Below are positions 21,110 through 58,274 of a stretch of DNA of 64,000 nt, in pieces; the stretch's first letter is position 1, and every line of letters starts with the position of its first letter. The stretch spans positions 631,792-695,791 of the forward strand of contig CAVXEU010000003.1 in the NCBI GenBank assembly GCA_963760915.1, given 5' to 3'. Both the position numbers and the translations under genes were made by a program. This DNA comes from an uncultured Bacteroidales bacterium. Its GTDB lineage: Bacteria; Bacteroidota; Bacteroidia; Bacteroidales; VadinHA17. Under the pieces are notes generated by a model, which was given only the letters and a program-made list of their open reading frames with translations, had not been told where the DNA came from and did not search any database.

Positions 21110-21114
21110 TATTT

Positions 21115-21408
21115 ATGGAACAAATTGATAATGCTAAAAGCCATATAATACCTTACAGGACATTTCTGAAAGTGCTGGCAGCCCTGATAGTCCTTGCACT
21201 TACTTCTGTTGCTCTCACCCAGATTTATCTTGGTACCCTTACTGTTGCCCTGGCGCTTATTATAGCAGTTATAAAATCCTCACTGGTTCTGCGTTACTTT
21301 ATGCATCTTAAGTTTGAGAGCAGGATGTTTACCATTGGGATCACAGCCGTAGCTCTGCTGATCGGCTCTGTAATTATAATAACCTTTCTTGACTACCTTT
21401 ATAGATAA
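21115..21408 (+). CDS. cytochrome c oxidase subunit IV (prokaryotic CoxIV family)
   Basis: About 97 aa from the internal Met (MEQIDNAKSH...). It has 3 TM helices and the motif SLVLRYFMHLKFE. The track start at 21070 overlaps ctaE and is unlikely. Confidence 0.7.
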   Translation: MEQIDNAKSHIIPYRTFLKVLAALIVLALTSVALTQIYLGTLTVALALIIAVIKSSLVLRYFMHLKFESRMFTIGITAVALLIGSVIIITFLDYLYR

Positions 21409-21413
21409 CAAGT

Positions 21414-25155: not shown

Positions 25156-25685
25156 GCTTTTACACTTTCATACTCTTTTTCCAGGACATCAACTGCACCC
25201 TGTTCATCCATCAGCTTACCGGCACCGGCAGCTGATGATAAATCGAGGACTTGTGTTTCTACAACAATCACAAACTTATCATCTGTTGCTTCCGGAACAA
25301 AAATTGTATTATCACGGCCCGGAAAAAGTTTTGAGCGGGCTGAAAATACTGCAAGGCTCGCAATGGTCACAGTAAGAATTGTCAAAACAATCGTAATGAC
25401 AATAAATGAAGGAAATGAATTAACAGGTTTCCCTCCATAAACAACAGGCCAGTTTATGACAGAAGTCCAGTAAAGAAATGCCAGGGTTGAAAGAATGCCA
25501 AACAGGCCGAAAAAATATGCTGCGGTAGGAAGTTTTGATTTTCGCTTCAACAAATGAAATACTTCTGTTACCGGATATGGCGTGAATACTTCAAAGATCT
25601 GGTAGCCCTTTTCCTGCAGCAATTTAACAGAGGAAAGAAACTTGTCCTCATCATCGAATATCCCTATTTTAAAAGATCTGGCCAT
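25152..25685 (-). CDS. actD: Alternative Complex III subunit ActD (DUF3341-like)
   Basis: 177 aa with two central TM helices. It sits between actC and actE, with 4-nt overlaps. Confidence 0.7.
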   Translation of the reverse strand: MARSFKIGIFDDEDKFLSSVKLLQEKGYQIFEVFTPYPVTEVFHLLKRKSKLPTAAYFFGLFGILSTLAFLYWTSVINWPVVYGGKPVNSFPSFIVITIVLTILTVTIASLAVFSARSKLFPGRDNTIFVPEATDDKFVIVVETQVLDLSSAAGAGKLMDEQGAVDVLEKEYESVKA

Positions 25686-25697
25686 AATTATACCATG

Positions 25698-27059
25698 TTA
25701 ATCCTCAGTTTTTTTACCAATTTGCGATACCCCCTTCAATTCACTTATTGCCATCATCGGAATATATCTCATGAAAAGAAGCACCCCGGATGCAAAAAGT
25801 CCTATAGTCCCGACAAATACGCCGATATCTATAACTGTGGGAGTGTAAGATACCCAGTTGGAGGGCAGGAAATCTCTATTGAGCGAGGTCACAACAATAT
25901 TAAATCTCTCGAACCACATTCCGAAGTTAATAAAAAGTGAAACTGCCAGCAGGCTGACCCAGTTTCTTCGTAATTTCCGGAACCAGAAAAGCTGCGGAAT
26001 TATTGCATTGCATGTAACCATTGCCCAGAACTGGAAAGTATATTCGCCGGTAATCCTGTTCCTGAAAAATGTAAACATCTCAAACTCATTGCCTGAATAC
26101 CATGCAACAAAGACTTCGGTTATATAGGCAGTACCCATGATAAGTGAAATGAAGATAAGTATCCGGGCAATGGCATCCATATGATTATCAGTGATGTAAT
26201 CGGTTAGCTTATAAATTTTCCTTATCAGAACCATAAGCGTCATGACCATTGCAAATCCCGAGAAAATCGCTCCAACGACGAAGAATGGAGGGAAGATAGT
26301 TGAATGCCAGCCCGGTTCTATTCCTACTGCAAAGTCGGTAGCAACTATTGAGTGGACCGAAACAACGAGTACTGCAGCTATACCCCCGAGTATAAAGCTG
26401 AGAGCCTCAAATCTAATCCATTGCCGGCTTGAACCTGTCCATCCAAGACTGAAAAAACCATAAATGGCTTTCCTTATTTTCGAGGTAGTCCTGTCACGAA
26501 TTGTTCCCAGATCGGGCAACATTCCAAGGTACCAGAATGAAACTGATATTATCAGGTAGGCAGTAATAGCCGTGAAATCCCAGAAAAGAGGAGAGTTATA
26601 ATTAACCCATAATGGTCCCCGGGTATTAGGATAAGGAAAAATAAAAAATGCAAGCCATACCCTTCCCATATGCAAGGTCGGAAAGAGAGCAGCGCATAGA
26701 ACTGCAAAAACAGTCATAGCTTCAGCTGCCCTGTTAATCGATGTCCTCCATCGTTGCCGGAGTACGAGAAGGAAAATAGAAAATGCCGTTCCGGCATGTC
26801 CTATCCCGATCCACCATACAAAATTGATGATCGCCCATCCCCATGCGACAGAATTATTTACTCCCCAGGTTCCTATGCCTTTGTAAACAGTTATGTAAAT
26901 AGAGTAAACCCCAAACAGCGTTGCTGCCGAGGCTATTCCAAAAGCAATAGTCCACCAAAGCCCCGGAGCCTTTTCAAGGGGATTGATTACCTCCCTGGAA
27001 ATCTGACCGAATGTCTTATTCCCTTCAATCAGGGGTCCTCTGATCTTTCTGTTATACAT
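25698..27059 (-). CDS. actC: Alternative Complex III quinol-binding membrane subunit ActC (NrfD/PsrC family)
   Basis: 453-aa protein with about 10 TM helices, of NrfD-like composition, directly downstream of the Fe-S/molybdopterin-like subunit. Confidence 0.85.
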   Translation of the reverse strand: MYNRKIRGPLIEGNKTFGQISREVINPLEKAPGLWWTIAFGIASAATLFGVYSIYITVYKGIGTWGVNNSVAWGWAIINFVWWIGIGHAGTAFSIFLLVLRQRWRTSINRAAEAMTVFAVLCAALFPTLHMGRVWLAFFIFPYPNTRGPLWVNYNSPLFWDFTAITAYLIISVSFWYLGMLPDLGTIRDRTTSKIRKAIYGFFSLGWTGSSRQWIRFEALSFILGGIAAVLVVSVHSIVATDFAVGIEPGWHSTIFPPFFVVGAIFSGFAMVMTLMVLIRKIYKLTDYITDNHMDAIARILIFISLIMGTAYITEVFVAWYSGNEFEMFTFFRNRITGEYTFQFWAMVTCNAIIPQLFWFRKLRRNWVSLLAVSLFINFGMWFERFNIVVTSLNRDFLPSNWVSYTPTVIDIGVFVGTIGLFASGVLLFMRYIPMMAISELKGVSQIGKKTED

Positions 27060-27078
27060 CGGCTACCTTCAGATTATT

Positions 27079-30042: not shown

Positions 30043-30069
30043 ACTCAGGCAATATTCCTGATTTTTAAA

Positions 30070-31224
30070 TTAATAATGGCACTTCATACATTCAGTACCA
30101 CCTAGTACGCTTTCAGTCACACTATCAATCTGTTCTTTTTTGAGTTTCTCTGCAAGTTCTCTGTAATCGGAATAGAATTTATTGCTCATCACATCCACTT
30201 TGTAGGTCCGGTGGCAATTTATGCACCATCCCATTGACAGATCCGATACCTGCCTGATAACATTCATTTTCTTCACATCGCTATGGCATACCTCACAGTT
30301 GATTCCGCCTGCCCCGACATGCTGGGCATGGCTGAAGAAAACATGGTCAGGAAGGTTATGCACTTTGATCCATTTAACAGGTATTCCTGCATCGTGAGCA
30401 TCAGTCACCTTAGCTATTTCAAAAGCACCGGAGCGCGATCCTGTTCGTACTATCAGGTGGCAGTTCATGCATACATTTGCCGGAGGAAAGCCGGCTGTCT
30501 GACTGATTTGCGCAAAACTATGGCAGTAAAGGCATGCTGTCTGATTCTGTCCTGCATGAACAGCATGCGAAAATTTTACTGGTTGAAAGGGCGAATAGTC
30601 TTTCGAACGACCGAGTGCTATAGCATCAATAACCAGTGTATAGCTTATAAATATTGTAGTGGAGCAAAGGAGAATGTAATCTATCCATCGTTTTTTGATC
30701 AGTTTGCTGATTATAAGATCTGTAACTGAAAACAGAAAAAGGATCGAAGCAATAATAAATAATAGCAGGTTTGTGATCACAGGCTTTTCCGGAACAAGGC
30801 CAATAGTGACAAATTTGTCCATATAGGCTTTGATGAGAACAATGTCTTCAGGGGTAAGCTGAAATCCCTTATGAGACTCGGTCATCTTTTTTCCGTAAGG
30901 ATTGAGAAGTACTTCACTTAAATCAGCTGCACTTTTATCAAGGTACTTCTTTGAAATTTCGTATGCATCCGGATTCCAGTTCAAGGTATCCAACACCCTT
31001 GTATTGTGACATGCCGCACAATTTGCTGATTTATCTTTCTGGTAAACCAACCCGAAAAACAACCTCTCTCCTCTGATAAGCTCTTCAGCAGTAAAAGTCC
31101 TTTTTTTGTAGAGGACTGAATCATTTGCCTGTTGGGCAGCGGAATAAGCAGGAATAAACAGACCTGACAGACAAATGATAACAAGTAAATAAATGATTTT
31201 TTTGAGAAGAAAGGATTTACGCAT
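30070..31224 (-). CDS. actA: Alternative Complex III multiheme cytochrome c ActA (six CxxCH motifs)
   Basis: 384 aa with CAACH, CLYCH, CMNCH, CEVCH, CINCH and CMKCH. A signal peptide and a TM segment separate the first heme domain from the other five. Confidence 0.85.
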   Translation of the reverse strand: MRKSFLLKKIIYLLVIICLSGLFIPAYSAAQQANDSVLYKKRTFTAEELIRGERLFFGLVYQKDKSANCAACHNTRVLDTLNWNPDAYEISKKYLDKSAADLSEVLLNPYGKKMTESHKGFQLTPEDIVLIKAYMDKFVTIGLVPEKPVITNLLLFIIASILFLFSVTDLIISKLIKKRWIDYILLCSTTIFISYTLVIDAIALGRSKDYSPFQPVKFSHAVHAGQNQTACLYCHSFAQISQTAGFPPANVCMNCHLIVRTGSRSGAFEIAKVTDAHDAGIPVKWIKVHNLPDHVFFSHAQHVGAGGINCEVCHSDVKKMNVIRQVSDLSMGWCINCHRTYKVDVMSNKFYSDYRELAEKLKKEQIDSVTESVLGGTECMKCHY

Positions 31225-32429: not shown

Positions 32430-32555
32430 TATTTCCATTTGAGTTTCCACAATCTTCGTGCGAATTACTAAATTTTAGTGCATCTTATTCATGTCTCATT
32501 AACCGGCTGTGAATGTGGCCCGGAAGACAGCGCGCTTGAATTCTGATATTTTTAT
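32407..32555 (+). repeat. 149-bp direct repeat, left copy (contains the last 23 nt of CDS 31611-32429)
   Basis: Aligned base by base with 33480-33628. There are 2 mismatches, at 32467 and 32534. Confidence 0.95.
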
Positions 32556-32679
32556 CCTGTTTTACGCACTTTTTAAAAAAGCTTCTGAGACTCTCAAGTA
32601 ATGGGGAATGATTTTTTTATTTGGGTGTTGCATCATATATCTATGATGTATTTTATTTGAATTTTTAATTTACATCACC

Positions 32680-33159
32680 ATGGCAAACACTTATGCTCAA
32701 TGTTATTTCCATATGGTCTTTTAAGTAAAAAATCGCGATGCGCTGATAAAAAGAGAATGGAAAGATGAATTGGAAATGTATGTCACAGGAATTGTCCAAA
32801 ACCATAGGCATAAAATGCTGGCAATAGGAACAATGCCTGACCATGTTCATATTTTGATAGGTTATAATGTAAATCAGCTGATACCAGATATTATTGAAGA
32901 AATTAAAACATCATCTAATAAATTCATTAAAGGAAAAAAGTTATCAAAATTTAAGTTTGAATGGCAGAAAGGTTATGGAGCTTTCACACATTCTCATTCC
33001 CAAATAGACCTTGTGGCAAAATATATCTTGTCTCAGGAAGAGCATCATGAAAAAAAGCCATTCAGTGAAGAGTATTTTGAAATCCTGGAGAAGAATAACG
33101 TGCAATTTAAAGATGAATATGTTTTTGAATTCTTTGATGACGTTCATGGTTGGGATTAA
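32680..33159 (+). pseudogene. IS200/RAYT-type HUH Y1 transposase-like gene interrupted by in-frame TAA (codon 15)
   Basis: The ATG at 32680 gives MANTYAQCYFHMVF*VKNRDALIKREWKDELEMYVTG..., in the same frame as track ORF 32770-33159. It has the HUH motif HVHILIG and a C-terminal catalytic-Tyr helix AKYILSQEEHH. The stop codon is at 32722-32724. Confidence 0.75.
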
Positions 33160-33160
33160 A

Positions 33161-33375
33161 TATCGCGGTGCTCTGCACCTTCTGTAATGTCTTTCAAATG
33201 CATTTCTACAAATATTATGCGGCTCTGCCGCTTAATATTAGCCCGGAATGTGCAGCGCATCAACTATCAATAGATGAATAGAAGCATTGAATAGCCAAAG
33301 AAGGTGCGGAGCACCATAATATTTGTAGATAAATTATTATTATAGAAGACAAAGGTGCATCGCACCGGAATATAA
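33161..33375. repeat. cluster of four REP-like hairpins (GGTGC-N3-GCACC type) in 2 forward + 2 reverse nested arrangement
   Basis: The hairpins are GGTGCtctGCACC at 33167-33179, GCGGCtctGCCGC at 33219-33231, GGTGCggaGCACC at 33303-33315 and GGTGCatcGCACC at 33354-33366. The flanks ctacaaatattatg (33205-33218) and cataatatttgtag (33316-33329) are reverse complements. Confidence 0.7.
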
Positions 33376-33479
33376 TTATTAAATAATATATTTTTAATTC
33401 ATTAGTAAACAGTTATTTAGAAATAACAAATAATAACCATTCAGAATTAAAATTCGGGTGTTGCAACGCTGAAAACAGG

Positions 33480-33628
33480 AGGTCAATGTTTTGTGTCAAT
33501 AATATTTCCATTTGAGTTTCCACAATCTTCGTGCGAATTTCTAAATTTTAGTGCATCTTATTCATGTCTCATTAACCGGCTGTGAATGTGGCCCGGAAGA
33601 CAGCGCACTTGAATTCTGATATTTTTAT
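33480..33628 (+). repeat. 149-bp direct repeat, right copy
   Basis: 147 of 149 bases are identical to 32407-32555. The offset is exactly 1073 bp. Confidence 0.95.
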
Positions 33629-33661
33629 GATCTATATTTTGTTTTCTCAGATAAATGATTT

Positions 33662-45443: not shown

Positions 45444-47240
45444 CTAATTCCTGAAATATCCTGTTAAAACAGTTGTTTTTGCGTGTCCGATAACTTTTTC
45501 AAGCTCTTCGGGTGTAGCACTTTTAATTTTATCAACCGAGCCAAAATATTTAAGCAAAATTTCTTTTGTTGCCGGACCGATACCTTTTATCCGGTCAAGA
45601 TCAGATTTTATCATCTCTGATGAACGCTTGTCGCGATGAAAATTGATTCCGAAGCGATGAGCCTCATTACGAAGTTGCTGAATAATTTTAAGGCTGATGG
45701 AATTCTTATCGAGATAAATGGGAACACTGTCGCCGGGGAAATAGATTTCCTCAAGTTTCTTGGCAATTCCGATCACAGTTATTTTTTGTCTCAGATTGAG
45801 TTTCTCGATACTTTTCATTGCTGATGATAATTGTCCTTTACCTCCGTCAATAATTACCAGTTGCGGGATCTTCTGCTCTTCCTCAAGCATTCTCTTATAT
45901 CGTCTGAATACTATCTCTTCCATCGAAGAAAAGTCATCAGGCCCGATAACTGTTTTAATATTGAAATGACGGTACTCCTTTTTGCTTGGTTTTGCATTAC
46001 GGAATACCACACATGCAGCAACCGGATTGGTACCCATGATATTTGAATTATCAAAACATTCTATATGTACAGGAAGATCAGGCATATGAAGATCATTCTT
46101 AAGTTTCTCAAGGTTTCTTCCGGTACGTGCCTGAGGGGCATGCTCCATTCTCTTTTTCTTCTGCTCGAGTTTATAGTATATGGCATTACGCTGAGCAAGT
46201 TCAAGAAGTTTATATTTATCGCCAGCCTGAGGAACAGTATATTTGAGCTTGTTTATTAACATATCCGGCTTAAATGGCACTATTATTTCAGGAGAATCAC
46301 TTATTAATCTTTGTCTTATCTCAGTAATGGCAAAACCAAGAATTGATTCTTTTTCCTCATCGACCCTGCTTTTCAGTTCGACAGTAAATGCTTGAATAAC
46401 AGCGCCTTGAACAACCTTTAAATAGTTAACATATGCATTATCAGCCTCTTGTGCTATGGCAAAAACATCCACATTCTTTATTGTATTGCTCACCACTGTT
46501 GAACGGCTTCTGAACCCCGAGAGAATTGCGATTTTATCTTTTATTACCTGAGCCTCTTCAAACCGCAGTTCTTTCGAATATTGCCGCATAAGTAATTTCA
46601 GATGGTCAATAACTGTTGAAATATTTCCTCTGAGTATATCTTTTATCTGGACAATGCTTTCCTGGTAATCGTTTTCATCCTGAAGGCCGACGCAAGGGCC
46701 TTTGCAGTTGCCCAGATGATACTCAAGACATACTTTGAATTTCCCGGCTGAAATATTTGATTCTGTCAGGTTTAGTGTACAGGTTCTCAGTTTATACAAT
46801 TGTCTTATAAGAGCAATCAGGGTTTTAACCATAAGGGCTGAAGTATATGGTCCAAAATAGAGTGAACCGTCTCTTATTACGTGTCTTGTACTGAACACCC
46901 TGGGGAAAGGCTCTTTTTTTATACAGATCCAGGGAAAAGTTTTATCATCCTTAAGGAGTATATTATATCTTGGCTGATGCTTTTTAATGAGGTTATTCTC
47001 AAGCAGTAAAGCATCCGATTCATTATCTACGACAATATGCCTGATATCATGAGTCCTTCTAAGCAGTACAGTGGTTTTCCCTGACTGGTTTTTAGAAAAA
47101 TATGACGTAACCCTCTTTTTAAGATTCTTTGCTTTGCCCACATATATTACTGTACCTTCGGAGTCGAGAAACTGGTATATTCCTGGTTTATCCGGAAGTA
47201 AGGACAATATAGATTTGAATTTTGAATCTGATGTCATCAC
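45444..47240 (-). CDS. uvrC: excinuclease ABC subunit C
   Basis: 598 aa with a GIY-YIG N-terminus (GIYQFLD...VIYVGKAKNLKKRV), a UVR domain and a C-terminal HhH. Confidence 0.95.
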   Translation of the reverse strand: MMTSDSKFKSILSLLPDKPGIYQFLDSEGTVIYVGKAKNLKKRVTSYFSKNQSGKTTVLLRRTHDIRHIVVDNESDALLLENNLIKKHQPRYNILLKDDKTFPWICIKKEPFPRVFSTRHVIRDGSLYFGPYTSALMVKTLIALIRQLYKLRTCTLNLTESNISAGKFKVCLEYHLGNCKGPCVGLQDENDYQESIVQIKDILRGNISTVIDHLKLLMRQYSKELRFEEAQVIKDKIAILSGFRSRSTVVSNTIKNVDVFAIAQEADNAYVNYLKVVQGAVIQAFTVELKSRVDEEKESILGFAITEIRQRLISDSPEIIVPFKPDMLINKLKYTVPQAGDKYKLLELAQRNAIYYKLEQKKKRMEHAPQARTGRNLEKLKNDLHMPDLPVHIECFDNSNIMGTNPVAACVVFRNAKPSKKEYRHFNIKTVIGPDDFSSMEEIVFRRYKRMLEEEQKIPQLVIIDGGKGQLSSAMKSIEKLNLRQKITVIGIAKKLEEIYFPGDSVPIYLDKNSISLKIIQQLRNEAHRFGINFHRDKRSSEMIKSDLDRIKGIGPATKEILLKYFGSVDKIKSATPEELEKVIGHAKTTVLTGYFRN

Positions 47241-47260
47241 ACAAATAAAATATTACTGCT

Positions 47261-48880
47261 TTATTCCACAAACAATTGTACAGGCTTGAATTTATTGACA
47301 TCAAACAAACCACGATCACCAATTTTCAGGGAAGGAATGACAAGCAAGGCCATAAAGGATAATGTCATAAAGGGTGCTTTCATATTACATCCCAAAGATT
47401 TGACAAATCCATTAAGTTGCTCATAATCATCTGCTACCTCAGGGCAGGAACGGGTGGTCATGATCCCTCCTATATTCAGACGAAGTGATTCGTGCATTTC
47501 ATCCGAACAGACTGCGAGTCCTCCCTGCATCCTGACAATTTCATTAATGGCATTTGTTATGTCCTTATCATTGGTACCAATGGCAATAATATTATGACTG
47601 TCGTGGGCAACAGAACTCGCAAATGCTCCCTTCTTTAAATCAAATCCCCTGATAAATCCTATAGCCGGAGCAAAATCATGGTATCTTTCCTTGACAACAA
47701 TTTTAAGCATGTCAGTATTTATGTCAGTCTCCACATATTCCTTTGAACCGGAAGATCCGATAATTTCCCCTGTTAAAAGTTCCCCTTCAAATGCCTCTAT
47801 AATTCTAATGCCGGCATGTTTATTTTTAACCGCTATATCCTTTACTTTAATAGTCGTGCAATTAAAATTGTTTACAGGATTCCCTGGCTCATATGTAAAG
47901 TTTACATGCCCATCATCATAAACTTTTACACCTCTAATCCATGTTTCCAGCACATTCATCCCGGTAAGATTATCCACTAAAATAAAATCTGCACTATCTC
48001 CTTTTCTTAATAGGCCTGATTCAAGTTTGTAATGAATTACAGGATTAATGGTTGCGCTTCTGATAACATCAAATTTGTCAAATCCCTCGGAAATAAGGGT
48101 TGCAATTAATTTATTGATATGTCTTATAAGCAACATTTCCGGATGCAGATCATCGCTGCATAGCATAACCATTCCCGGATTTGATTTATACAACTCCTTC
48201 AGAGCATCAAGATTCCTTGCAGCACTTCCTTCTCTTATCAGAATCTTCATGCCCAAAGAGATTTTTTCCTCCGCTTCTTTCAGAGTGCTGCATTCGTGGT
48301 CGGTTGATATTCCTGCAGAAATGTACTTTCTCAGCATTTCACCAGTTAAGCCCGGGGCATGGCCGTCAATTGGTTTTCCTGTTTCCTTTGCTGCTTCAAG
48401 TTTGAGATACACCTCCGCATCATCATTAATTACTGCAGGGTAATTCATCATCTCGGACAAATAATTTATTTCAGGTCTTCTGAGAAGGGCTCTGACATCA
48501 TCATGATTAAGTGAACCACCATTACTCTCAAAACCTGTCGCCGGGACACATGATGGAGCCCCAAAATAAAATCTTAGCGGAACTTTTGAGGCATCGTTCA
48601 GCATAAATTCTACTCCCGGCACGCCCAGAACATTTGCTATCTCATGCGGATCAGAAACAACTGCGGTTGTTCCATGGCTTACTGCTGTTAAGGTAAAAGC
48701 ACCAGGGGTGATCATTGAGCTTTCAATATGTATATGGGCATCAATCAGCCCTGGCAGAATGAAAACATCAGGCGCCTCTTCAACTAATTCAATGTCCTCA
48801 ATCTTGCCATTGATAACAGTAATCATAACCGGATAGATATCCTTTTTATGAATATCTACCAGTTGTCCATACACTTTCAT
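47261..48880 (-). CDS. ade: adenine deaminase
   Basis: 539-aa amidohydrolase with the metal motif GLIDAHIHIESSM and later DGHAP and SDDLHP-type motifs. Confidence 0.85.
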   Translation of the reverse strand: MKVYGQLVDIHKKDIYPVMITVINGKIEDIELVEEAPDVFILPGLIDAHIHIESSMITPGAFTLTAVSHGTTAVVSDPHEIANVLGVPGVEFMLNDASKVPLRFYFGAPSCVPATGFESNGGSLNHDDVRALLRRPEINYLSEMMNYPAVINDDAEVYLKLEAAKETGKPIDGHAPGLTGEMLRKYISAGISTDHECSTLKEAEEKISLGMKILIREGSAARNLDALKELYKSNPGMVMLCSDDLHPEMLLIRHINKLIATLISEGFDKFDVIRSATINPVIHYKLESGLLRKGDSADFILVDNLTGMNVLETWIRGVKVYDDGHVNFTYEPGNPVNNFNCTTIKVKDIAVKNKHAGIRIIEAFEGELLTGEIIGSSGSKEYVETDINTDMLKIVVKERYHDFAPAIGFIRGFDLKKGAFASSVAHDSHNIIAIGTNDKDITNAINEIVRMQGGLAVCSDEMHESLRLNIGGIMTTRSCPEVADDYEQLNGFVKSLGCNMKAPFMTLSFMALLVIPSLKIGDRGLFDVNKFKPVQLFVE

Positions 48881-48909
48881 AAATAAATATTTTTGATTTT
48901 ATAAAATAT

Positions 48910-48925
48910 TGTTCCACGTGGAACA
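48910..48925. other. parS-like perfect 16-bp palindrome TGTTCCACGTGGAACA
   Basis: Read directly. Both half-sites are TGTTCCAC. It lies in the 47-bp gap between the mnmG stop and the ade start. Confidence 0.5.
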
Positions 48926-48927
48926 TT

Positions 48928-50802
48928 TCATCGTCCGATATACATCAACAATATATTAACATCCGATGGGGAAACTCCACTTATTCTGCCTGCCTGCCCA
49001 ATATTCACAGGCTTAATACGATTCAGCTTCTGTCGGCCTTCGGTAGATATTGACACCAATTCACTATAATCGATATCCTCTGGGATTTTCAAACCCTCGA
49101 GTCGTTTAATTTTATCTGCAATTATTTTCTCTCTAATGATGTATCCTTCATATTTAATTTTGATCTCAGCCGATTCTGCAATCTCTTTAAATCTCGAAGA
49201 ATTTACTGCTTTAAGTTCATCGCCTCCCTTAATTACTTTTATTAATGCCCCGATTTCTACCTGGGGCCTTGCAGCAATTGTTATCGCCTTAACTTTTTGA
49301 ACGATTATATTAGTATCAATATTTTCAAGAAAGCTATTAATATCTTCCGGACCTACGCTGGTTTCTGTAAGGAATTTTATAATCTCGTTAACCATTGAAT
49401 CCTTTTCTTCAAGGCGTTTTACCCGTTCGATACCAGCTGTCCCGATTTCATAAGCTTTCCTTGTAAGTCTTTCATCGGCATTATCCTGCCGTAAAAGAAT
49501 TCTGTACTCTGCACGCGATGTAAACATTCTGTATGGTTCATCAACCCCCTTTGTTACGAGATCGTCAATAAGAACTCCTATATAAGATTCTTCCCTGCCC
49601 ATAATAAAAGGCTTTTTATTCCGCAACTTCAATACAGAATTAATTCCCGCCATCAAACCCTGGGCTGCCGCTTCTTCATATCCTGTAGTGCCATTTATCT
49701 GTCCGGCGAAATAAAGATTTTTAATAGCTTTTGTTTCCAACGTATGCTTCAATTGTGTAGGCTGAAAAAAATCATATTCTATTGCATATCCCGGACGGAA
49801 TATTTCAGCCTTTTCAAGACCCTTAACCTTTCTCAGGGCTTTTAATTGCACCTCCATAGGCAGACTGCTTGAAAAGCCATTTATATAATATTCAACCGTG
49901 TCAAGTCCTTCAGGTTCGATAAAAAGCTGATGAGCATTTCTTTCCTTAAATGTAACAATCTTGTCTTCAATACTCGGACAATAACGTGGACCCCTTCCTT
50001 TTATCCGTCCTGTAAAAAGAGGGCTGAATTCCAATCCTTTCCTCAACTCTTCATGAACGTCCTCATTTGTATGAGTAATAAAACAGCTTCTTTGTTCTTT
50101 AATTACTCCTTCCTCATTCATATATGAAAATGCCCGTCCTTCATCATCCCCCATTTGTTCCGTCATCGAAGAAAAGTCAATTGATCTGCCATCTATCCTT
50201 GCACTTGTTCCGGTCTTCATTCTATCAACTGTAAACCCAAGCTTTTCCAATTGCTCACTTAATCCGGTTGACTCCTGATCTCCGGATCTGCCTCCCTTAA
50301 TTTTATTGAATCCAATATGCATCAGACCATTTAAAAATGTTCCGTTCGTCAAAATCACAGCCTGTCCGTAGAACCTCGTACCAAAGGATGTTTCCACACC
50401 AACAACACTGTCTTCATCAAGTACCAGTGTTTTTGCCTGCTCCTGCCATATGAACAGGTTATCTGTGTTTTCCAGTACTTTTCGCCATTCTGTGGTAAAT
50501 TTCATTCTGTCACATTGAGCCCTTGGACTCCACATCGCTGGTCCCTTCGATCTATTCAACATCCTGAACTGGATCATACTTCTATCAGTAACAATTCCAC
50601 TCATTCCTCCCAGTGCATCGATTTCCCTTACTATCTGGCCTTTCGCAATTCCGCCCATAGCCGGATTACATGACATCTGAGCAAGCTTAGTCATATCCAT
50701 GGTAATAAGCAATGTCTTTGCCCCCATTACAGCAGCTGCATGTGCCGCCTCGCAACCAGCATGCCCTCCCCCGACAACAATAATATCATATCTAAAGTCC
50801 AT
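48928..50802 (-). CDS. mnmG: tRNA uridine-5-carboxymethylaminomethyl(34) synthesis enzyme MnmG (GidA)
   Basis: It has the FAD motif DIIVVGGGHAGCEAA. The internal Met at 50802 (MDFRYD...) is preferred over the track start at 50826. Confidence 0.95.
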   Translation of the reverse strand: MDFRYDIIVVGGGHAGCEAAHAAAVMGAKTLLITMDMTKLAQMSCNPAMGGIAKGQIVREIDALGGMSGIVTDRSMIQFRMLNRSKGPAMWSPRAQCDRMKFTTEWRKVLENTDNLFIWQEQAKTLVLDEDSVVGVETSFGTRFYGQAVILTNGTFLNGLMHIGFNKIKGGRSGDQESTGLSEQLEKLGFTVDRMKTGTSARIDGRSIDFSSMTEQMGDDEGRAFSYMNEEGVIKEQRSCFITHTNEDVHEELRKGLEFSPLFTGRIKGRGPRYCPSIEDKIVTFKERNAHQLFIEPEGLDTVEYYINGFSSSLPMEVQLKALRKVKGLEKAEIFRPGYAIEYDFFQPTQLKHTLETKAIKNLYFAGQINGTTGYEEAAAQGLMAGINSVLKLRNKKPFIMGREESYIGVLIDDLVTKGVDEPYRMFTSRAEYRILLRQDNADERLTRKAYEIGTAGIERVKRLEEKDSMVNEIIKFLTETSVGPEDINSFLENIDTNIIVQKVKAITIAARPQVEIGALIKVIKGGDELKAVNSSRFKEIAESAEIKIKYEGYIIREKIIADKIKRLEGLKIPEDIDYSELVSISTEGRQKLNRIKPVNIGQAGRISGVSPSDVNILLMYIGR

Positions 50803-51226
50803 GTTCTTTCTCCTTAAATAATCCAAGCCACAAATCTTCCAAATCTCTCATTTCATTCCTTTCCGCTTCAGTTCTGTCATCATATCCCAAAAGATGAAAA
50901 ACTCCATGAACAATAACTCTTACAACCTCATCTCTTAAACTAATATTATAGTTTAATGCATTTTCCTGTACCGTATCAATACTTATGTATATTTCCCCAT
51001 TAATAATATCCTCTGCATTGTAATCAAACGTAATAACATCTGTAAAATAATCATGTTCAAGAAACTGAACATTAATTTTCCTAAGGCTAATATCATTTGT
51101 GATTATACAATTAAGGTCACCCGTAATTTTTCCATTTTTCCGGATGACCTCATTAATAAGATTTTTTACATTTTTCCAGTGCTTCAGTCTGAAGTCTGTT
51201 TCATCATAAAATATTCTGATGCTCAA
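50792..51226 (-). CDS. ybeY: rRNA maturation RNase YbeY
   Basis: 144 aa with the zinc motif HGVFHLLGYDD. Confidence 0.9.
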   Translation of the reverse strand: MSIRIFYDETDFRLKHWKNVKNLINEVIRKNGKITGDLNCIITNDISLRKINVQFLEHDYFTDVITFDYNAEDIINGEIYISIDTVQENALNYNISLRDEVVRVIVHGVFHLLGYDDRTEAERNEMRDLEDLWLGLFKEKEHGL

Positions 51227-51657
51227 ATTACAATATTTTTAAATGTCATAGTAACAGCATTTCCTTTCTTGCTGTATTTAATTCCGTCTGCCAGACGTGA
51301 CATCAGATAAATTCCCCGCCCGTTTAATGCCTCAATATTGTCAGGCAGTGTCGGATCTGGTACCTCTTCAGGTCTGAAACCAATCCCTTCATCAGTAATT
51401 TTGATTTTTAGCTCATTACTCTTAAACCTTATATCAATATTGACAAATTTATCGGGATCAGACTTATTTCCATGCTGAATTGCATTGTTTACAGCTTCCA
51501 GGGTCGAAACAAGAATTTTGCCATAGTTTTCCTCCGAAATTTTTATTTCACTAGAAGCCTCATCAATTGCAGTCTCCACGACCCGCAGATTAATCATTCT
51601 TGATTCTATTTTAATCTTTTTATACATATTATCCCAGCTACGAACTTTTATACTCAA
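51223..51657 (-). CDS. RsbW/SpoIIAB-like HATPase (anti-sigma regulatory kinase family)
   Basis: 144 aa with an N-box (EAVNNAIQHG), a G1 box (DEGIGF) and NGRGIYLM. Confidence 0.7.
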   Translation of the reverse strand: MSIKVRSWDNMYKKIKIESRMINLRVVETAIDEASSEIKISEENYGKILVSTLEAVNNAIQHGNKSDPDKFVNIDIRFKSNELKIKITDEGIGFRPEEVPDPTLPDNIEALNGRGIYLMSRLADGIKYSKKGNAVTMTFKNIVI

Positions 51658-51685
51658 ATCTAAAGTATTTGTTACATAAACTTAC

Positions 51686-52873
51686 CTAATTTTTAGATAG
51701 CCATAATTCAGGGTCAAGATATTCCGTAGTAAATGTCGTAAATATCATAAATTTCAGGTTAGAATTATAATTATTTTCTGGATCTGTGTAAATATCTCCG
51801 ATTTCCTGTTTAGTTACGACCTTATCACCTTTTTTTACCTTAACATTTATAATATTTGTGTACACTGAAAGATATTTTCCATGGCGAATCATTATCGTCA
51901 TATTTGCACCATTTATAGCAAAAACCTGAGCAACTTCACCCTGAAAAACCGAACGTGCCTTCGCTTTTCCACTGCTTACAATTTCAATTCCAATATTATT
52001 TTCCGTTACATATTTCAATATTGGATTTTCATGGACACCAAAATGGCTTGTAATAATGCCTTTCTCAACAGGCCAGGGCAGGCGGCCCTTGTTTTCCACA
52101 AAATTATCTCCAATAAGCTTTTGTTCTGGTGTATTTTCAGATTTAACTGCTTTTTTTCTTTCTTCAGCTATAAGCCGGGTTATCTCTGATTCTATTTTCT
52201 TTGCAATTCTCTTCTTTTCATCCAAATCCTTTTGAAGCTGTTTTTGTTTGTTACTCAATGTCTTAACCATTCTTTGCTTTTTTGACTGCTCATTTTGTAA
52301 CATATTCTTTTGCTGTTCTTCCTTCGTCTTTAAATCTGAAACTCTTTCCAAATCAAGCTGAAGTTTTTCTTTTGAAGTTTCTATCTGGCTTTTCAATTCC
52401 AGAATAATTTCTGCTTCCCTTCTTCTGAATTTAGTAACCTGCTGCAAATATTTAAGCCGCTTATAACCCTGATTAAAATCTCTGGCTGATAGTATATAAA
52501 CCAGCTCTGGATAACCTTTTTGCGTTTTATAAGAATTAATTACAGCCCTTGAATAATCATTCTTAAGGCTTATTAAATCTCTTTCCATCATATCTATTGC
52601 AAGTGAGTTTAAATCTATTCTTTCAGAAAGAAGCTTTATTTCATCGCGCATATCAATAATAACAGATTCTCTCAGGTTCAATTTCTTTCCTATAATCCTG
52701 ATATCATTCAAGCTTTCATTTTTCTCTTTCGCAGTTGTTTTAAGAAGATTATCAACATAAGAAATTTCCTCCAATGTTTTAGCACGTTTTGCTTCAAGTT
52801 CAGCCTTTGTCTGAGCATTCAAACAGTTAATATAACTCATAAATACTATCGCAGACAGTACTAAATATTTCAT
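51686..52873 (-). CDS. EnvC-like murein hydrolase activator (coiled coil plus degenerate LytM/M23 domain)
   Basis: It has a signal peptide and about 230 aa of heptad-rich coiled coil. The C-terminal LytM fold lacks the HxxxD and HxH ligands (NNIGIEI and NLKFMIF occupy those positions). Confidence 0.75.
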   Translation of the reverse strand: MKYLVLSAIVFMSYINCLNAQTKAELEAKRAKTLEEISYVDNLLKTTAKEKNESLNDIRIIGKKLNLRESVIIDMRDEIKLLSERIDLNSLAIDMMERDLISLKNDYSRAVINSYKTQKGYPELVYILSARDFNQGYKRLKYLQQVTKFRRREAEIILELKSQIETSKEKLQLDLERVSDLKTKEEQQKNMLQNEQSKKQRMVKTLSNKQKQLQKDLDEKKRIAKKIESEITRLIAEERKKAVKSENTPEQKLIGDNFVENKGRLPWPVEKGIITSHFGVHENPILKYVTENNIGIEIVSSGKAKARSVFQGEVAQVFAINGANMTIMIRHGKYLSVYTNIINVKVKKGDKVVTKQEIGDIYTDPENNYNSNLKFMIFTTFTTEYLDPELWLSKN

Positions 52874-53631
52874 AAAAGTGGGATTATTTCATAATTCTTT
52901 CCCGGAATAAATTCTACATTTCCATTCCAGGGGTATTCTAATTTATCAATTTTCATATCAACTTCCGTCTTCATTCTTAAAGATTTCATATAAATCTTAC
53001 CGGGAATGATAAGACTATCTCTATTTATAAAGTTCTCATATCTGAATTCGAGTGCGGCATCACTTAAGCTACCCTCCTCCTTCGCGGAAACAGGTTTGCC
53101 ATTCTGGCAATTTATAGTATAGATAATTCTGATTCCGGCTTTAAAACTATTCATATTCAGATATCCATCAACGCATTTCCCAATGCCTTCAATTATATCA
53201 TCTGAAACAAAATCCCCGAATATCAAAGGCAAAACAGAAAAATTCATACCATATTTTCTTCCAATGAAATCAGGTTTCCCATAATATAACACCCTGTTGA
53301 TTCTGTCGTTAATCAGTAGTGTATCCGCTGTAATAAAAATTCTTGCAACCTCTATTCCTGTTTTACTCCTAAGGCTTATCAGAAATTTATCGGGTATTTC
53401 AAACTTAATACTTCCTAAAAGTTTCTGATCATTTTCATCGGATCGTATATAAATATCCGCTTTTTGAATAAAAAAGCTATTTTTCGTTAAGTTTCTTTCT
53501 TCAAGTTTATTCAGTTTGATTTCATTCTTTGCTTCCCCCCTGAACCCCGGAATGTTACTTCTTTCAATCTTAAACACCGAACAACCGGAACTTAAAATAA
53601 GAATTAACAATATAATATTCAGTTTTTGCAA
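52870..53631 (-). CDS. DUF4292-like lipoprotein
   Basis: It has a signal peptide with the lipobox LSSGC. Its position between the TPR protein and the LytM protein matches the conserved Bacteroidota arrangement. Confidence 0.5.
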   Translation of the reverse strand: MQKLNIILLILILSSGCSVFKIERSNIPGFRGEAKNEIKLNKLEERNLTKNSFFIQKADIYIRSDENDQKLLGSIKFEIPDKFLISLRSKTGIEVARIFITADTLLINDRINRVLYYGKPDFIGRKYGMNFSVLPLIFGDFVSDDIIEGIGKCVDGYLNMNSFKAGIRIIYTINCQNGKPVSAKEEGSLSDAALEFRYENFINRDSLIIPGKIYMKSLRMKTEVDMKIDKLEYPWNGNVEFIPGKNYEIIPLL

Positions 53632-55346
53632 TTATTTATCTCTTTAATCAATTCTGTTTTTGTGCTATCTAATTTCAATGCCATTTCCCAGTTTTCAATT
53701 GCTTTTTTACAATTATGCATTTTTTTCATAATATATCCGAAATGCTCATACCAAGTTGCATCAGGTATTTCACCCTTTTTAATAATCTCTTCAAAAATCT
53801 TTGCCGCCTCCTTTAGTTTGCCACGTTTGTACAGAACCCATCCGTAAGTATCGAGAAAAGTAGCATTGTTTTTTTCAGTATCAATTACCTTTTTTGCCAT
53901 TTCCTCAGCTTCTTTCAGATTTTCATTTTGTTCAGCAAGGTAATAGGCATAATTATTTATCAAAGTCAGATCATTTTTATCATATTTCAATGCTTCCTCG
54001 AAAGTCTGAAATGCTTTTTTATAATCCTTCATCCTGTAATATGTGTCAGCTCTCATAGTCAATACCTGAACTATTGAGTCCTTGTCGTTTCCTGCAAGTA
54101 TCTCAGCCTTTCTTAATTCATCAAGTGCAACTGTATATTTTCCGGTTTCCATGGCACCATTCGCATATAATATTTTTGCCACAAATGAGGTGTTAAAACG
54201 AGAAGCACATTCTTCGCCTCTGCTTGTTAATTTACTGTAATCCTTCATCTGAAGATAAACTAAAAGCAATTTTTCCCAGGCATAATAGTTTTCCGGAAAA
54301 GACTTTACAATTTCTTCAAGTCTTAATGCTGCACCCTGATAGTCATTTTCCTTAATGAATAGTTCAGGTCGAAGTAAAGGTATTATATAATCATTTTTAA
54401 AATTTGCTTCCAGCACCATAATAGACAGTAAGAGCTTGTCACTATAATCCTTAATAACCTCCGGAGTGTCAATTAAACGAGCTATTAATGAAATTTTTTC
54501 TTCCCGAGTTACTTTTTTGTTCAGAACAATAGTATTCAGCAATACAAACAATTCGTCAAAACTCTTATCCCTGATAAGAAAATCGCAGAGAGAAAGCTGG
54601 ATCTGCGGATCATCCGGATTTCTTCCGATAAGATCATCATACACATGTAATGCTTTTTCATTCTCTCCCATTCCCTGATAAATCTCAGCAAGTAGTCCGT
54701 TATAAAGAATTTCATCAGGGTTCTTTTTTAACAACATTTCAGCCTTAAGAAGAGCATCTTCATATTTCCCGGCTGCCATATAATTCTTTATTTCAGCAAC
54801 GGCAGAAGACTCATTTACTCCATATTTTTTATCAAGAGCTTCAAAAATTGCATTTGCTTTTTCATAATTTTTATTCTCTGAATAAAGACTTCCAAGAGTT
54901 AATTGAAGGTTTTCCTTCTCCGGATAATACTTTACAGCTTTCTCATAATAAATTAATGCACTGTCAAGGTCTTTTTCCTGATAATACAAACCTGCAAGCA
55001 TAGTAAGATACCATATATTCCTATCATCAATTGCAACTGCTTTGCTGATAAAGCGTTTCCCATTTTTGTAATCTCCGTTTGCAATTACAATTTGTGCCAT
55101 TTCATAATATGATGCATCACTTTCAGGATTTATTTTAACACATTGCTCAAGATATTTCAGAGCATCACCATCATTTCCCTCAAGCTTTTGCTTAAGTGCT
55201 TCAACATAAACATAATCGAATGCAGCAGCATCATATGTGTTCTTTTGTTTCACGCTTTGCAACGATGGAGTAATCTTCTTTGTACAGGAAGAACCACCTA
55301 ATAAAATAAAGCCAGAAAAAATTAAATAAAACCATTTTTTTTTCAT
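53619..55346 (-). CDS. tetratricopeptide repeat lipoprotein
   Basis: 575 aa with the lipobox GGSSC and many TPR-like A/Y/L-patterned 34-aa repeats. Confidence 0.8.
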   Translation of the reverse strand: MKKKWFYLIFSGFILLGGSSCTKKITPSLQSVKQKNTYDAAAFDYVYVEALKQKLEGNDGDALKYLEQCVKINPESDASYYEMAQIVIANGDYKNGKRFISKAVAIDDRNIWYLTMLAGLYYQEKDLDSALIYYEKAVKYYPEKENLQLTLGSLYSENKNYEKANAIFEALDKKYGVNESSAVAEIKNYMAAGKYEDALLKAEMLLKKNPDEILYNGLLAEIYQGMGENEKALHVYDDLIGRNPDDPQIQLSLCDFLIRDKSFDELFVLLNTIVLNKKVTREEKISLIARLIDTPEVIKDYSDKLLLSIMVLEANFKNDYIIPLLRPELFIKENDYQGAALRLEEIVKSFPENYYAWEKLLLVYLQMKDYSKLTSRGEECASRFNTSFVAKILYANGAMETGKYTVALDELRKAEILAGNDKDSIVQVLTMRADTYYRMKDYKKAFQTFEEALKYDKNDLTLINNYAYYLAEQNENLKEAEEMAKKVIDTEKNNATFLDTYGWVLYKRGKLKEAAKIFEEIIKKGEIPDATWYEHFGYIMKKMHNCKKAIENWEMALKLDSTKTELIKEINNCKN

Positions 55347-55413
55347 ATTCTCTCCTTTCCTGTGTGTCTGAATCCTCCCGCTGCCCGTTCCGATTCCAAC
55401 AGATTATCAACAT

Positions 55414-55776
55414 TTATCCACTCTGCCTATCATGTTTAGCAATTCTCATCTGACAGATTCTCTCTCCGTACTTAATAACGAAATCTTTCATACATAAGTT
55501 CACCAGAATTAAACAAATTCTCCCCTGTAATCTGAATCACCAGCACCATGATAAATAATTAAACACACATTTGTTAATTGCTGATCCACATCCATGTCTT
55601 ATCAGTTCTTCGCACCCATCAGAAATTTCGAGAAACAAACCGTTTTTCGCAATTGTCCTCTCCATTGCTTAAATAATTGCATCCTCAAAGTCAGCCTTTA
55701 TGTCCATTTCAGCTGATAACAGTGTGTAATAAGCAGATAATTTATGTTTCGATATATTAATTACTTTGATCTTCAT
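55414..55776 (-). pseudogene. dut: dUTP diphosphatase (dut) pseudogene
   Basis: Manual minus-strand translation from 55776 gives MKIKVINISKHKLSAYYTLLSAEMDIKADFEDAII*AMERTIAKNGLFLEISDGCEELIRHGCGSAINKCVFNYLSWCW*FRLQGRICLILVNLCMKDFVIKYGERICQMRIAKHDRQSG*. This is colinear with trimeric Dut. The stops are at 55669-55671 and 55537-55539. Motif 3 (GAGDSDYRGE) is readable only in the +1 frame, and motif 5 is absent. Confidence 0.75.
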
Positions 55777-55784
55777 GCATTCTA

Positions 55785-56168
55785 CCTTCCAGAATAAACT
55801 GTGAGAACTTTATCTTTACACTTTGAATATCCAATAAAAATAACAATAAAAACTGTGTTAATAATCAACTCCTGTACAAGGTTCTTTTATCTAAAGTACA
55901 GTCTGAAAATTACCATTCCGATAGCAATAATAAAATACTGTGGAGGTTTAATAACGTCATATTGAATTTTATAGTGCTTTTCCGCAAATATAAACGAAAC
56001 TATTAACATTTATCTGTAAGATACTATGTTTGCCCGGGCAGACGTCCTGAATCCCAATACCCGGATAAAAATAACATTAATCAACACTCTTATTACTTCT
56101 CCAGTAAAAGTTTTAGATGCTTCATACCTTCGAATATCATAATGCTTACAAAATATACTATGATTTAT
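55785..56168 (-). pseudogene. relic of an unidentified (hydrophobic, membrane-like) gene
   Basis: One minus-strand frame runs 128 codons with only two internal TAA codons (56010-56012 and 55887-55889) in very AT-rich DNA. There is no start codon. The hydrophobic stretches are VLINVIFIRVLGF, YFIIAIGMVIF and LIINTVFIVIFIGY. Confidence 0.3.
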
Positions 56169-56337
56169 TCAAATTCCGTAAATAACTGTCTGACCTGCAA
56201 GTTTACGGACCTCTCTCACATAAAATATTTAAGTGCAAATATATCGTTAAAGCCATAATACGTAAATCCGATGGTAAGATTTTTCGAAATTAACACAATT
56301 TGAAAACCAATATTTTCGTGTATCATCCAAAGTTAAA

Positions 56338-56345
56338 TATCTTTG
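56338..56345 (+). promoter_or_regulatory. candidate -7 box TAtcTTTG
   Basis: It matches TAnnTTTG. It overlaps the track TTG start at 56343, which argues for the downstream ATG at 56388 as the real start. Confidence 0.35.
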
Positions 56346-56387
56346 CAGTCACTTTTGCAGAACGTTATTAACCAAAATATGATTTTC

Positions 56388-57206
56388 ATGAACATCTTCT
56401 ATAAAAAAGTAATATTGCTTCCATTTCTTCTTTTAACTTTCTCGTGCAATCCAAAAATCAGCAATGAGAACACCATTATTTCCGTTAAAACAACTCTCGG
56501 GGACCTCAAAATAAAACTTTATGACGGTACTCCCCTGCATCGTGATAATTTCATCAAGCTTATAAAATCAGGATTTTACGACGGAATATCTTTTCACAGG
56601 GTAATTAAAGATTTTATGATCCAGGCAGGCGATCCTTCGACTAAAACCGGCTCATCAGAAAGTTTGCCCGATTCCCTCTCAACCTATACTATACCTTCTG
56701 AAATCAACAGAATCTATTTTCATAAAAAGGGAGCACTGGCAGCTGCCAGACAGGGAACTGACGTAAATCCTGAAATGAGGTCATCCGGCACACAATTTTA
56801 CATTGTACAAGGGGTCAAATATACAGATGAGGAACTAAACCAGGCTGAGCAACGGATCAATAGCAATATCAAGCAAACTCTTTTTGACAGGTTAATGAGG
56901 GAAACTGCTGACAGTATAAGATTATCAGGAAGTACAACATCAGATGATTCTGAAATTCAGGAAATTGCCTCACTCAAAATGTTTCAGTATCTTGCTTCAA
57001 ATAAAGAATATACATTATCCGAAGAACAGCGTAATGTCTATAAAACCATCGGAGGAACACCCCTTCTTGACGGAACCTATACTGTTTTTGGTGAAGTAAT
57101 TGAAGGTTTGGATGTTATTGATAAAATTGCAGCTGTTCCTACTGACAGTAATGATAAACCTCTGAGCGACATTAAAATTATCAGAATAAAAATTGAAAAG
57201 GATTAA
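56388..57206 (+). CDS. cyclophilin-type peptidyl-prolyl cis-trans isomerase (lipoprotein, with internal insertion)
   Basis: It has a signal peptide with the lipobox LTFSC. Cyclophilin motifs are FHRVIKDFMIQAGDP and GTQFYIV...VFGEVIEGLDVIDKI. An insert of about 80 aa lies between them. Confidence 0.85.
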   Translation: MNIFYKKVILLPFLLLTFSCNPKISNENTIISVKTTLGDLKIKLYDGTPLHRDNFIKLIKSGFYDGISFHRVIKDFMIQAGDPSTKTGSSESLPDSLSTYTIPSEINRIYFHKKGALAAARQGTDVNPEMRSSGTQFYIVQGVKYTDEELNQAEQRINSNIKQTLFDRLMRETADSIRLSGSTTSDDSEIQEIASLKMFQYLASNKEYTLSEEQRNVYKTIGGTPLLDGTYTVFGEVIEGLDVIDKIAAVPTDSNDKPLSDIKIIRIKIEKD

Positions 57207-57233
57207 TACAGACAGATATAAAAGTGTATTTCT

Positions 57234-58274
57234 ATGCTTCAGAAAATAAAAGATCTTTTAAATGAGGTCTCATCGGCGACAATTAAAACAGCTGAAGAGC
57301 TCGAATCATTTCGTCTTAAATACCTAAGCAAAAAAGGCTTGCTTTCTGATCTCTTTGAAGATTTCAGGAATGTTCCTGTTTCAGATAAGAAAGAGGTTGG
57401 GCAGATGCTGAATATATTAAAAAAGAATGCACTCGAAAAATATAATTCCTTCCAGTCAGGAATAGTAATAACCGAGGAACATCCAGATGGTAAAGATCTT
57501 ACAAGACCTTCATTTCCATATTCTTCCGGATCGCGTCATCCGATTTCGATTGTGAGAAAAGAGATAATTGAAATTTTCAGCCGTATCGGTTTTACCGTTT
57601 CAGAAGGCCCTGAAATTGAGGATGATGATCATGTATTTACAAAACTGAACTTTGCACCCGAGCATCCTGCCAGAGATATGCAGGATACATTTTATATCTC
57701 TAGAATATCATCTGAAGATTCCAGTCCGGGTGATATATTACTACGTACCCACACTTCATCTGTGCAGGTAAGAGTTATGCAATCTCAAAAGCCTCCGATA
57801 CGAACTATTTCACCCGGAAGAGTTTTTCGTAACGAGGCTATTTCAGCCAGGGCTCATTGTATTTTCCATCAGGTTGAGGGTTTGTACATAGATGAAAATG
57901 TATCATTTGCAGATCTGAAACAGACATTGCTGTTTTTTGCACGTGAAATTTTCGGAAAAGAGACTGAAATCAGATTAAGGCCCTCATATTTCCCTTTCAC
58001 CGAACCTTCTGCTGAAATGGATGTAACCTGTAAAATATGCGGGGGAAAGGGTTGTAATGTATGCAAATACACCGGCTGGCTTGAAGTTTTAGGTTGTGGT
58101 ATGGTTCATCCCAATGTTCTGGAAGCTTGCAGCATTGACAGCCGGAAATTTACCGGATTTGCTTTCGGTATGGGAATTGAGAGACTTGCTATGTTAAAAT
58201 ATCAGGTAAATGATCTTCGTCTCTATTTTGAAAACGACAAAAGGTTCCTTGAACAATTTAAGACAGCATTTTAG
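57234..58274 (+). CDS. pheS: phenylalanine-tRNA ligase alpha subunit
   Basis: It has class II motifs (FRNEAISARAHCIFHQVEG and GFAFGMGIERLAM). Confidence 0.95.
   Translation: MLQKIKDLLNEVSSATIKTAEELESFRLKYLSKKGLLSDLFEDFRNVPVSDKKEVGQMLNILKKNALEKYNSFQSGIVITEEHPDGKDLTRPSFPYSSGSRHPISIVRKEIIEIFSRIGFTVSEGPEIEDDDHVFTKLNFAPEHPARDMQDTFYISRISSEDSSPGDILLRTHTSSVQVRVMQSQKPPIRTISPGRVFRNEAISARAHCIFHQVEGLYIDENVSFADLKQTLLFFAREIFGKETEIRLRPSYFPFTEPSAEMDVTCKICGGKGCNVCKYTGWLEVLGCGMVHPNVLEACSIDSRKFTGFAFGMGIERLAMLKYQVNDLRLYFENDKRFLEQFKTAF

Follow-up and report, generated by a model that had tools for sequence, protein, structure and literature searches.

A decayed dUTPase gene in an uncultured Bacteroidales bacterium and the recurrent loss of dut at its locus

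The dUTPase gene, dut, is usually regarded as a housekeeping gene. Trimeric, all-beta dUTPases (PF00692; PRK00601/TIGR00576), which include E. coli Dut and the intact orthologues in Bacteroidales MAGs, are recognised by family similarity, by an uninterrupted frame of 140-150 codons and by five motifs with invariant residues. In the survey "Life without dUTPase", 26 of 96 complete Bacteroidetes genomes (27%) carried no gene for a trimeric or dimeric dUTPase or a bifunctional dCTP deaminase-dUTPase, and multiple independent losses of dut were inferred (Kerepesi et al., 2016; PMC5122711). A 2025 review repeats these findings and adds that other enzymes may hydrolyse dUTP. The locus described here lies in a window of 64 kb, the whole stretch of DNA that was analysed, and is a real and fairly ordinary case of gene decay, a fresh example of a known phenomenon.

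A dUTPase relic in the longest ORF-free stretch

The window is densely coding (about 87.5%), and its genes are those of ordinary housekeeping, among them PolA, DeoC, Dtd, cytochrome oxidase, PheS, RuvB, NadA, UvrC, MnmG and YbeY. A run of genes on the minus strand (23363-31224), unrelated to the dut finding, has weak matches to DsrP-like and QrcA-like multihaem cytochrome subunits and adjoins the cytochrome c oxidase genes (18106-23232); this neighbourhood looks like an alternative complex III-type respiratory module. Elsewhere, the similarity of a 129-aa ORF at 32770-33159 (plus strand), flanked by segments that are free of ORFs (32430-32769 and 33160-33654), to the IS200-like Y1 transposase profile (PF01797, E=5.7e-16) is confined to profile positions 31-121, and the ORF is possibly an IS200/RAYT-type element in truncated or degenerate form.

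The longest ORF-free stretch of the window spans 55347-56342 (996 bp; the other gaps measure at most 646 bp). The initial annotation had found no ORF of at least 60 aa in 55413-56343, as the ORF list confirms, and had proposed that a heavily decayed trimeric dUTPase pseudogene runs along the minus strand from 55776, a proposal with which profile searches, synteny across 47 related loci and an independent assembly all agree. A non-coding RNA in the gap was rejected: no Rfam family matches at E<=1 within 55000-56600 or at gathering score across the whole window, and no tRNAs were found in the window. The gap is fully accounted for by a conserved divergent region with a presumed promoter (56220-56342), a flippase-like relic and the dut relic, so that the largest "empty" stretch of the window amounts to two dead genes.

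The dut relic (55349-55776, minus strand) is full length, with about 142 of its 144 codons recognisable, and is readable only across three frames. From the ATG at 55776 the minus strand starts MKIKVINISKHKLSAYYTLLSAEMDI..., and the first frame reads MKIKVINISKHKLSAYYTLLSAEMDIKADFEDAII before reaching a stop. Motif 3 (HGAGDSDYRGE) sits in the next frame, and CLILVNL...GERICQMRIAKHDR returns to the first frame, in which three-frame translation places GERICQM, correctly identified at the outset as motif 4. The third frame reads AEWINVDNLLESERAAGGFRHTGKE at 55426-55352, up to the TPR start codon, and carries motif 5 in the form RAAGGFRHTG. Motif 5 had been reported as lost and the relic as stopping at 55414; its actual end, about 65 bp further on at 55349, abuts the ATG (55346) of the TPR gene.

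The profile search that had been proposed as a check returned a match to PF00692 at E=4.9e-11 (42.9 bits; cutoff 22) for the frame-corrected translation, and at E=1.6e-5 even for a single uncorrected frame. With the same frame-corrected translation, the NCBIfam dUTP diphosphatase model PRK00601 gives E=1.5e-27, and solved dUTPases in the PDB give E=1.6e-19 with alignments covering residues 2-142, while tblastn with the intact orthologue from related locus L002 finds the relic at E=5e-32. On these matches, the similarity to dUTPases is far beyond chance, and by family similarity the frame-corrected relic is a trimeric dUTPase. Its longest ORF piece is only 42 aa, and the five motifs no longer hold their invariant residues. 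As expected of a unitary pseudogene, it occupies the orthologous position, an intact 144-aa dut lying directly upstream of TPR in 17 GTDB species that include the outgroups L046 and L047. The relic is thus a descendant of the dUTPase family and not a working member of it.

Nucleotide alignment of the relic with 11 orthologues from related genomes maps four deletions that disable the gene and together remove 7 of 435 bp. The first, of 3 bp at 55671/55670, creates the in-frame TAA at codon 36 (55669-55671). A 2-bp deletion at 55562/55561, between motifs 2 and 3, is the first frameshift and is the reason for the TGA at 55539-55537; the second, a loss of 1 bp at 55518/55517, follows immediately on motif 3 (DSDYRGE). 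The third frameshift, also a 1-bp deletion, lies at 55431/55430, upstream of RAAGGFRHTG, and is seen in both the alignment and the three-frame translation. The initial annotation had already listed the TAA and the TGA, both of which are present on the minus strand, and had deduced from the displaced frame of motif 3 a 2-bp deletion before it and a 1-bp deletion after it, which the alignment places precisely; its lesion list missed only the further 1-bp deletion at 55431/55430.

Substitutions have accumulated as well. At positions that are invariant in 17 functional-looking orthologues, 16 of 51 residues are changed in the relic, and these changes reach motifs 1, 2, 3 and 5, bearing out the earlier claim that catalytic residues are substituted. 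Motif 1 reads SAEMD (G23E) where functional copies have the pattern AGxD, motif 2 reads RHGCGS against RPRSGL (R63G, S64C, L66S), motif 3 reads GAGDSDYRGE against GxIDxDYRGE (T80A and I to G), and motif 5, whose functional pattern is RGxGGFGxTG, carries G134A and G139R. Motif 4 (functional pattern GxRIxQ) is kept.

The same relaxation is apparent in overall divergence. Mean identity between the relic and functional dut is 55%, against 74% among functional copies themselves, whereas the TPR neighbour resembles its orthologues to the expected degree (62% against 60%); dut identity is lower than TPR identity for the window copy, the opposite of what is seen in every functional lineage. The dN of the relic against functional copies is 0.23-0.32, compared with a mean of 0.159 among functional copies, and intact copies show dN/dS of 0.10-0.18, indicative of purifying selection. 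Judged by these substitutions, selection on the window dut is relaxed relative to functional copies. Nine functional genes share 195 invariant nucleotide columns, of which 31 (about 16%) are changed in the relic; the relic must therefore be old, despite having lost only 7 of 435 bp.

Because the ATG, motif 4, the motif 3 core DSDYRGE and the greater part of motif 5 can still be recognised, it could be asked whether the locus makes active dUTPase through programmed frameshifting or stop read-through. Such a product would require one read-through event and three separate frameshifts of differing sizes, and would still carry the altered motif 2 together with G to E in motif 1 and G to R in motif 5, all at positions invariant in the 17 functional orthologues. 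In addition, the same arrangement occurs in no relative, the lesions varying from species to species, and the probability of this kind of rescue is close to nil. The relic is predicted to yield no full-length product.

Three of the four lesions are indels of 1-2 bp, the kind that long-read assemblies can introduce, for example at homopolymers, and the window source appears to be a MAG contig; the organism might then have an intact dut, with the stop and frameshifts being sequencing or assembly errors. A 15-kb contig in the Logan assembly of run ERR11571143, however, encodes M23 peptidase and LolB1-like proteins that are exactly those of the window. This separately built contig (ERR11571143_133150) aligns without gaps to window positions 46686-57325 (10,640 bp; 99.953% identity), and all five SNPs (54872, 53380, 53185, 49084 and 48997) fall outside 55347-56343. 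The gap is identical in the two assemblies, which agree on every stop and frameshift, and assembly error was rejected as the source of the lesions. The Logan contig may derive from the same sample as the window, in which case it is independent as an assembly and not as a population. Moreover, errors cannot produce 16 substitutions at family-invariant residues, those of the catalytic motifs included, or a doubled dN, and the gene next to dut is marked by a 1-kb deletion and by three stops, amid neighbouring genes that are all of full length. The identical gap and the substitution pattern therefore exclude sequencing error, and the survival of an intact gene behind such errors, which is highly improbable, is essentially refuted. 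The segment 55349-55776 is instead a dead relic of a chromosomal trimeric dUTPase gene, and the canonical dUTPase of the organism is non-functional.

A second relic and the operon around it

The DNA upstream of the dut relic had been treated as empty, but 55794-56219 (minus strand) is a second pseudogene, the remnant of a membrane "polysaccharide biosynthesis" or flippase-like gene of about 490 aa that precedes dut in relatives. With the L002 protein as tblastn query, codons 357-485 are found at 56180-55794, with 53% identity over 129 aa (E=4e-34) and three in-frame stops. Codons 1-15, at 56219-56175, are joined in frame to codons 357-485 at a common YG dipeptide, so an internal deletion of about 341 codons has occurred. 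The intact L002 membrane protein itself has only a weak match, to the NCBIfam HfsF polysaccharide biosynthesis protein (E=2e-8). Across lineages, the flippase-like gene is intact, truncated or absent independently of dut.

In relatives, the order of genes at this locus is a divergent PPIase gene, the multi-pass membrane protein of about 490 aa, dut (144 aa), a TPR-repeat protein (575 aa), DUF4292/LolB1 and an M23 peptidase, with neighbouring reading frames overlapping or abutting one another. The ancestral operon would have run from the flippase-like gene through dut, TPR and LolB1 to the M23 peptidase. As originally claimed, dut sits in a conserved position ahead of TPR, DUF4292 and M23 genes that are intact downstream of it, and the synteny of 47 related loci supports this placement. 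In the window, these minus-strand genes are the TPR-repeat gene directly downstream of the relic (53619-55346; 575 aa, matching Pfam TPR families and of the same length as in the 47 loci), the DUF4292 gene for a LolB1-type outer-membrane lipoprotein insertase (52870-53631; PF14125) and the M23 peptidase gene (51686-52873; PF01551), whose exact protein is on the Logan contig. The DUF4292 gene scores 54.2 bits against the Flavobacteria-type model LolB1_Flavo (NF053559), above the equivalog cutoff of 50, and for this reason the trio of TPR, DUF4292 and M23 genes probably serves cell-envelope biogenesis.

The fate of dut in related species

The window lineage has its closest relatives among uncultured Bacteroidales MAGs of fens, peat, lake sediment and soil, none of which exceeds 70-72% in TPR identity. 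The source and the Logan contig aside, GTDB representatives, JGI metagenomes and a collection of 5.8 billion proteins contain nothing above about 70-72% TPR identity, and the decay can therefore be dated only to after the split from all sampled relatives. The erosion of the window dut would thus have taken place wholly within its own lineage.

The state of dut was scored in 46 GTDB species representatives, a set to which the window copy does not belong. The syntenic gene looks functional in 17 species and is decayed or absent in 29. Every stage of decay is represented among the latter. Two species have an open dut ORF with damaged motifs: L007 (5570-5998) carries S64R, G139E and a 2-codon deletion, and L009 (5537-5971) has a stop at codon 2 together with R61S and D25N. 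Two others retain, like the window, a full-length dut with stops or frameshifts; the copy in L033, on the complete chromosome OY970346.1 (5564-5998), is interrupted by two in-frame stops and has had its motif 5 destroyed, and that of L018 (5551-5995) is frameshifted. In about 14 species dut is reduced to fragments, and in about 11 it is gone without trace, often with the flippase-like gene abutting TPR, these calls of absence concerning the syntenic locus, so that some could hide a dut relocated elsewhere in the genome. A clean deletion is seen in L022, L024, L029, L031, L032, L034-L036, L038 and L040 (at about 5900-6001 in each), where the flippase-like gene ends in a stop codon that touches or overlaps the TPR start; to judge from this arrangement, the operon in these species works without any dut-derived sequence. 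Contigs from JGI metagenomes show a similar spread, with 15 full copies, 29 remnants and 11 loci with none.

Intact and decayed states are interleaved on the TPR-protein tree, and sister species differ from one another (L006, intact, and L005, with an internal deletion; L009 and L028; L007 and L003; L044 and L034-L036; L041 and L019). If no regain is assumed, 18 losses are counted (bootstrap range 14-22), and Fitch parsimony gives at least 11 changes, both figures resting on a one-gene neighbour-joining tree of MAG sequences. By these counts, the loss in the window is one of at least 11-18 independent losses of dut in a family of uncultured wetland and sediment Bacteroidales. The initial annotation had treated the loss of dut as remarkable, a premise that is weak given 29 of 46 relatives with a decayed or absent gene and 26 of 96 Bacteroidetes genomes lacking any known type of dUTPase (PMC5122711).

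As a consequence of the loss, the initial annotation had proposed either a replacement enzyme or tolerance of uracil in DNA. No dcd, ung, MazG, dimeric dUTPase, dCTP deaminase-dUTPase or second dut gene is present in the 64-kb window, and 1.29 Mb of DNA from the loci of the family likewise contains no second dut-like ORF. Repeated decay of dut, differences between sister species and purifying selection on the copies that are kept could mean that the family has a patchily distributed and unrecognised route of dUTP disposal, or that it tolerates uracil in DNA, although we consider either proposal rather doubtful. Were one of them true, whole-genome comparison of sister pairs with and without dut could reveal the compensating gene.

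Probable persistence of dead DNA in a transcribed leader

Bacteroidetes promoters have the -7 consensus TAnnTTTG. A promoter-like motif of this type, TATATTTG, lies at 56236-56243 (minus strand), 16 nt upstream of the GTG of the flippase relic, and is presumed to be the promoter of the operon; of 24 related loci, 19 have a motif of the same type at the homologous offset, regardless of what remains downstream. A second conserved block in the divergent intergenic region, GCAAAGATATTTAACTTTGG (56327-56346), is near-identical in almost all related loci, and its plus strand reads TATCTTTG, also of the TAnnTTTG type and directed at the PPIase gene. The entire region between the PPIase gene and the operon (56220-56346) is strongly conserved across the homologous regions L001-L037, with both motifs at the same offsets in most members; a putative promoter function is assigned to TATATTTG, and the GCAAAGATATTTAACTTTGG/TATCTTTG block would likewise have a function. 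Translation of the PPIase gene probably begins not at the TTG at 56343 but a few codons further downstream, the Logan call being 283 aa compared with 287. The full pattern TTTG-N17-23-TAnnTTTG has four matches in the window, no excess over chance, and none in the gap; scans for sigma-70 promoters are uninformative for this phylum. No terminator-like site was found in 55200-56500.

This arrangement offers a plausible reason for the survival of some 870 bp of dead DNA, which lies between the presumed operon promoter and genes that are still needed. The TPR, LolB1 and M23 genes would still be transcribed from the TATATTTG promoter through both relics, which would be carried passively as a long 5' leader, and the only deletions tolerated would be those that leave promoter and TPR start untouched. 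The flippase relic retains exactly its 15 promoter-proximal codons, next to the TATATTTG motif. It is thus probable that the relics have survived as leader sequence, transcribed on the way from a conserved promoter to the intact TPR, LolB1 and M23 genes.

Conceivably, the dut relic might instead have been exapted, its DNA or RNA being kept as a regulatory element of the TPR, LolB1 and M23 genes, such as an internal promoter, a leader or a small ORF. Many decayed relatives retain just the last 75-130 bp of dut before the TPR start, and the window relic has lost very little of its length for a sequence so altered at nucleotide columns invariant in functional copies. Promoter-distal remnants are, however, also expected if random deletion endpoints are forced to spare the TPR start. 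Special conservation of the 3' end, which might have signalled an internal promoter, was considered and rejected; at the protein level the figures were suggestive, this end being 80% identical to L002, compared with 47%, but the nucleotide comparison shows no significant advantage in conservation over the remainder of the relic (Fisher p=0.27 and 0.43), and there is thus no sign of sequence-level constraint on the leader. The relic has no Rfam match, and the clean deletion of dut in about 11 species, with the flippase-like gene abutting TPR, implies that no dut-derived sequence is required. Exaptation is therefore unlikely. Passive carriage remains the preferred reading, and it is very probable that the locus as a whole is best explained by relaxed selection that would have led, in dut, to four small deletions (one stop and three frameshifts) and to many substitutions, including those in catalytic motifs 1, 2, 3 and 5, with the flippase relic alongside, recurrent loss across the family and, probably, a passive 5' leader.

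Many Bacteroidetes are already known to live without dut, and this case adds one more; what modest interest it has comes from the recurrence of decay at a single locus throughout the family. All stages of dut decay can be seen at a fixed and easily recognised position within one uncultured wetland family of Bacteroidales, and this family constitutes a natural experiment. The family could serve to ask what makes dUTPase dispensable (a known backup such as a dCTP deaminase-dUTPase or MazG, a phage-borne dut, ung loss or a novel factor) and for how long a bacterial pseudogene lasts between a promoter and needed genes.

Set against the trimeric all-beta dUTPases, the relic shares with E. coli Dut and the intact Bacteroidales orthologues a length of 144 codons and the order of the five motifs; like the latter it lies upstream of the TPR, DUF4292 and M23 genes, with about 55% identity after frame correction. 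It differs from them in not being an ORF, interrupted as it is by one in-frame stop and three frameshifts, in the replacement of invariant residues in motifs 1, 2, 3 and 5, and in a score of 96.1 bits that falls just under the cutoff of 103 for the NCBIfam dUTPase equivalog. In comparison with the dut-minus genomes surveyed by Kerepesi et al. (2016; PMC5122711), the organism is likewise a bacterium with a non-functional canonical chromosomal dut. That survey scored presence or absence in complete genomes, whereas here, in a lineage analysed over a 64-kb window, loss is caught in progress as a full-length relic, and sister species show all the intermediate stages of decay. The relic resembles ordinary pseudogenes of free-living bacterial genomes in its small deletions, stop codon, raised non-synonymous rate and densely coding surroundings, as well as in the large internal deletion of its neighbour. 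Unlike these, it is old for a sequence of nearly intact length, and it belongs to a gene that is usually considered housekeeping.
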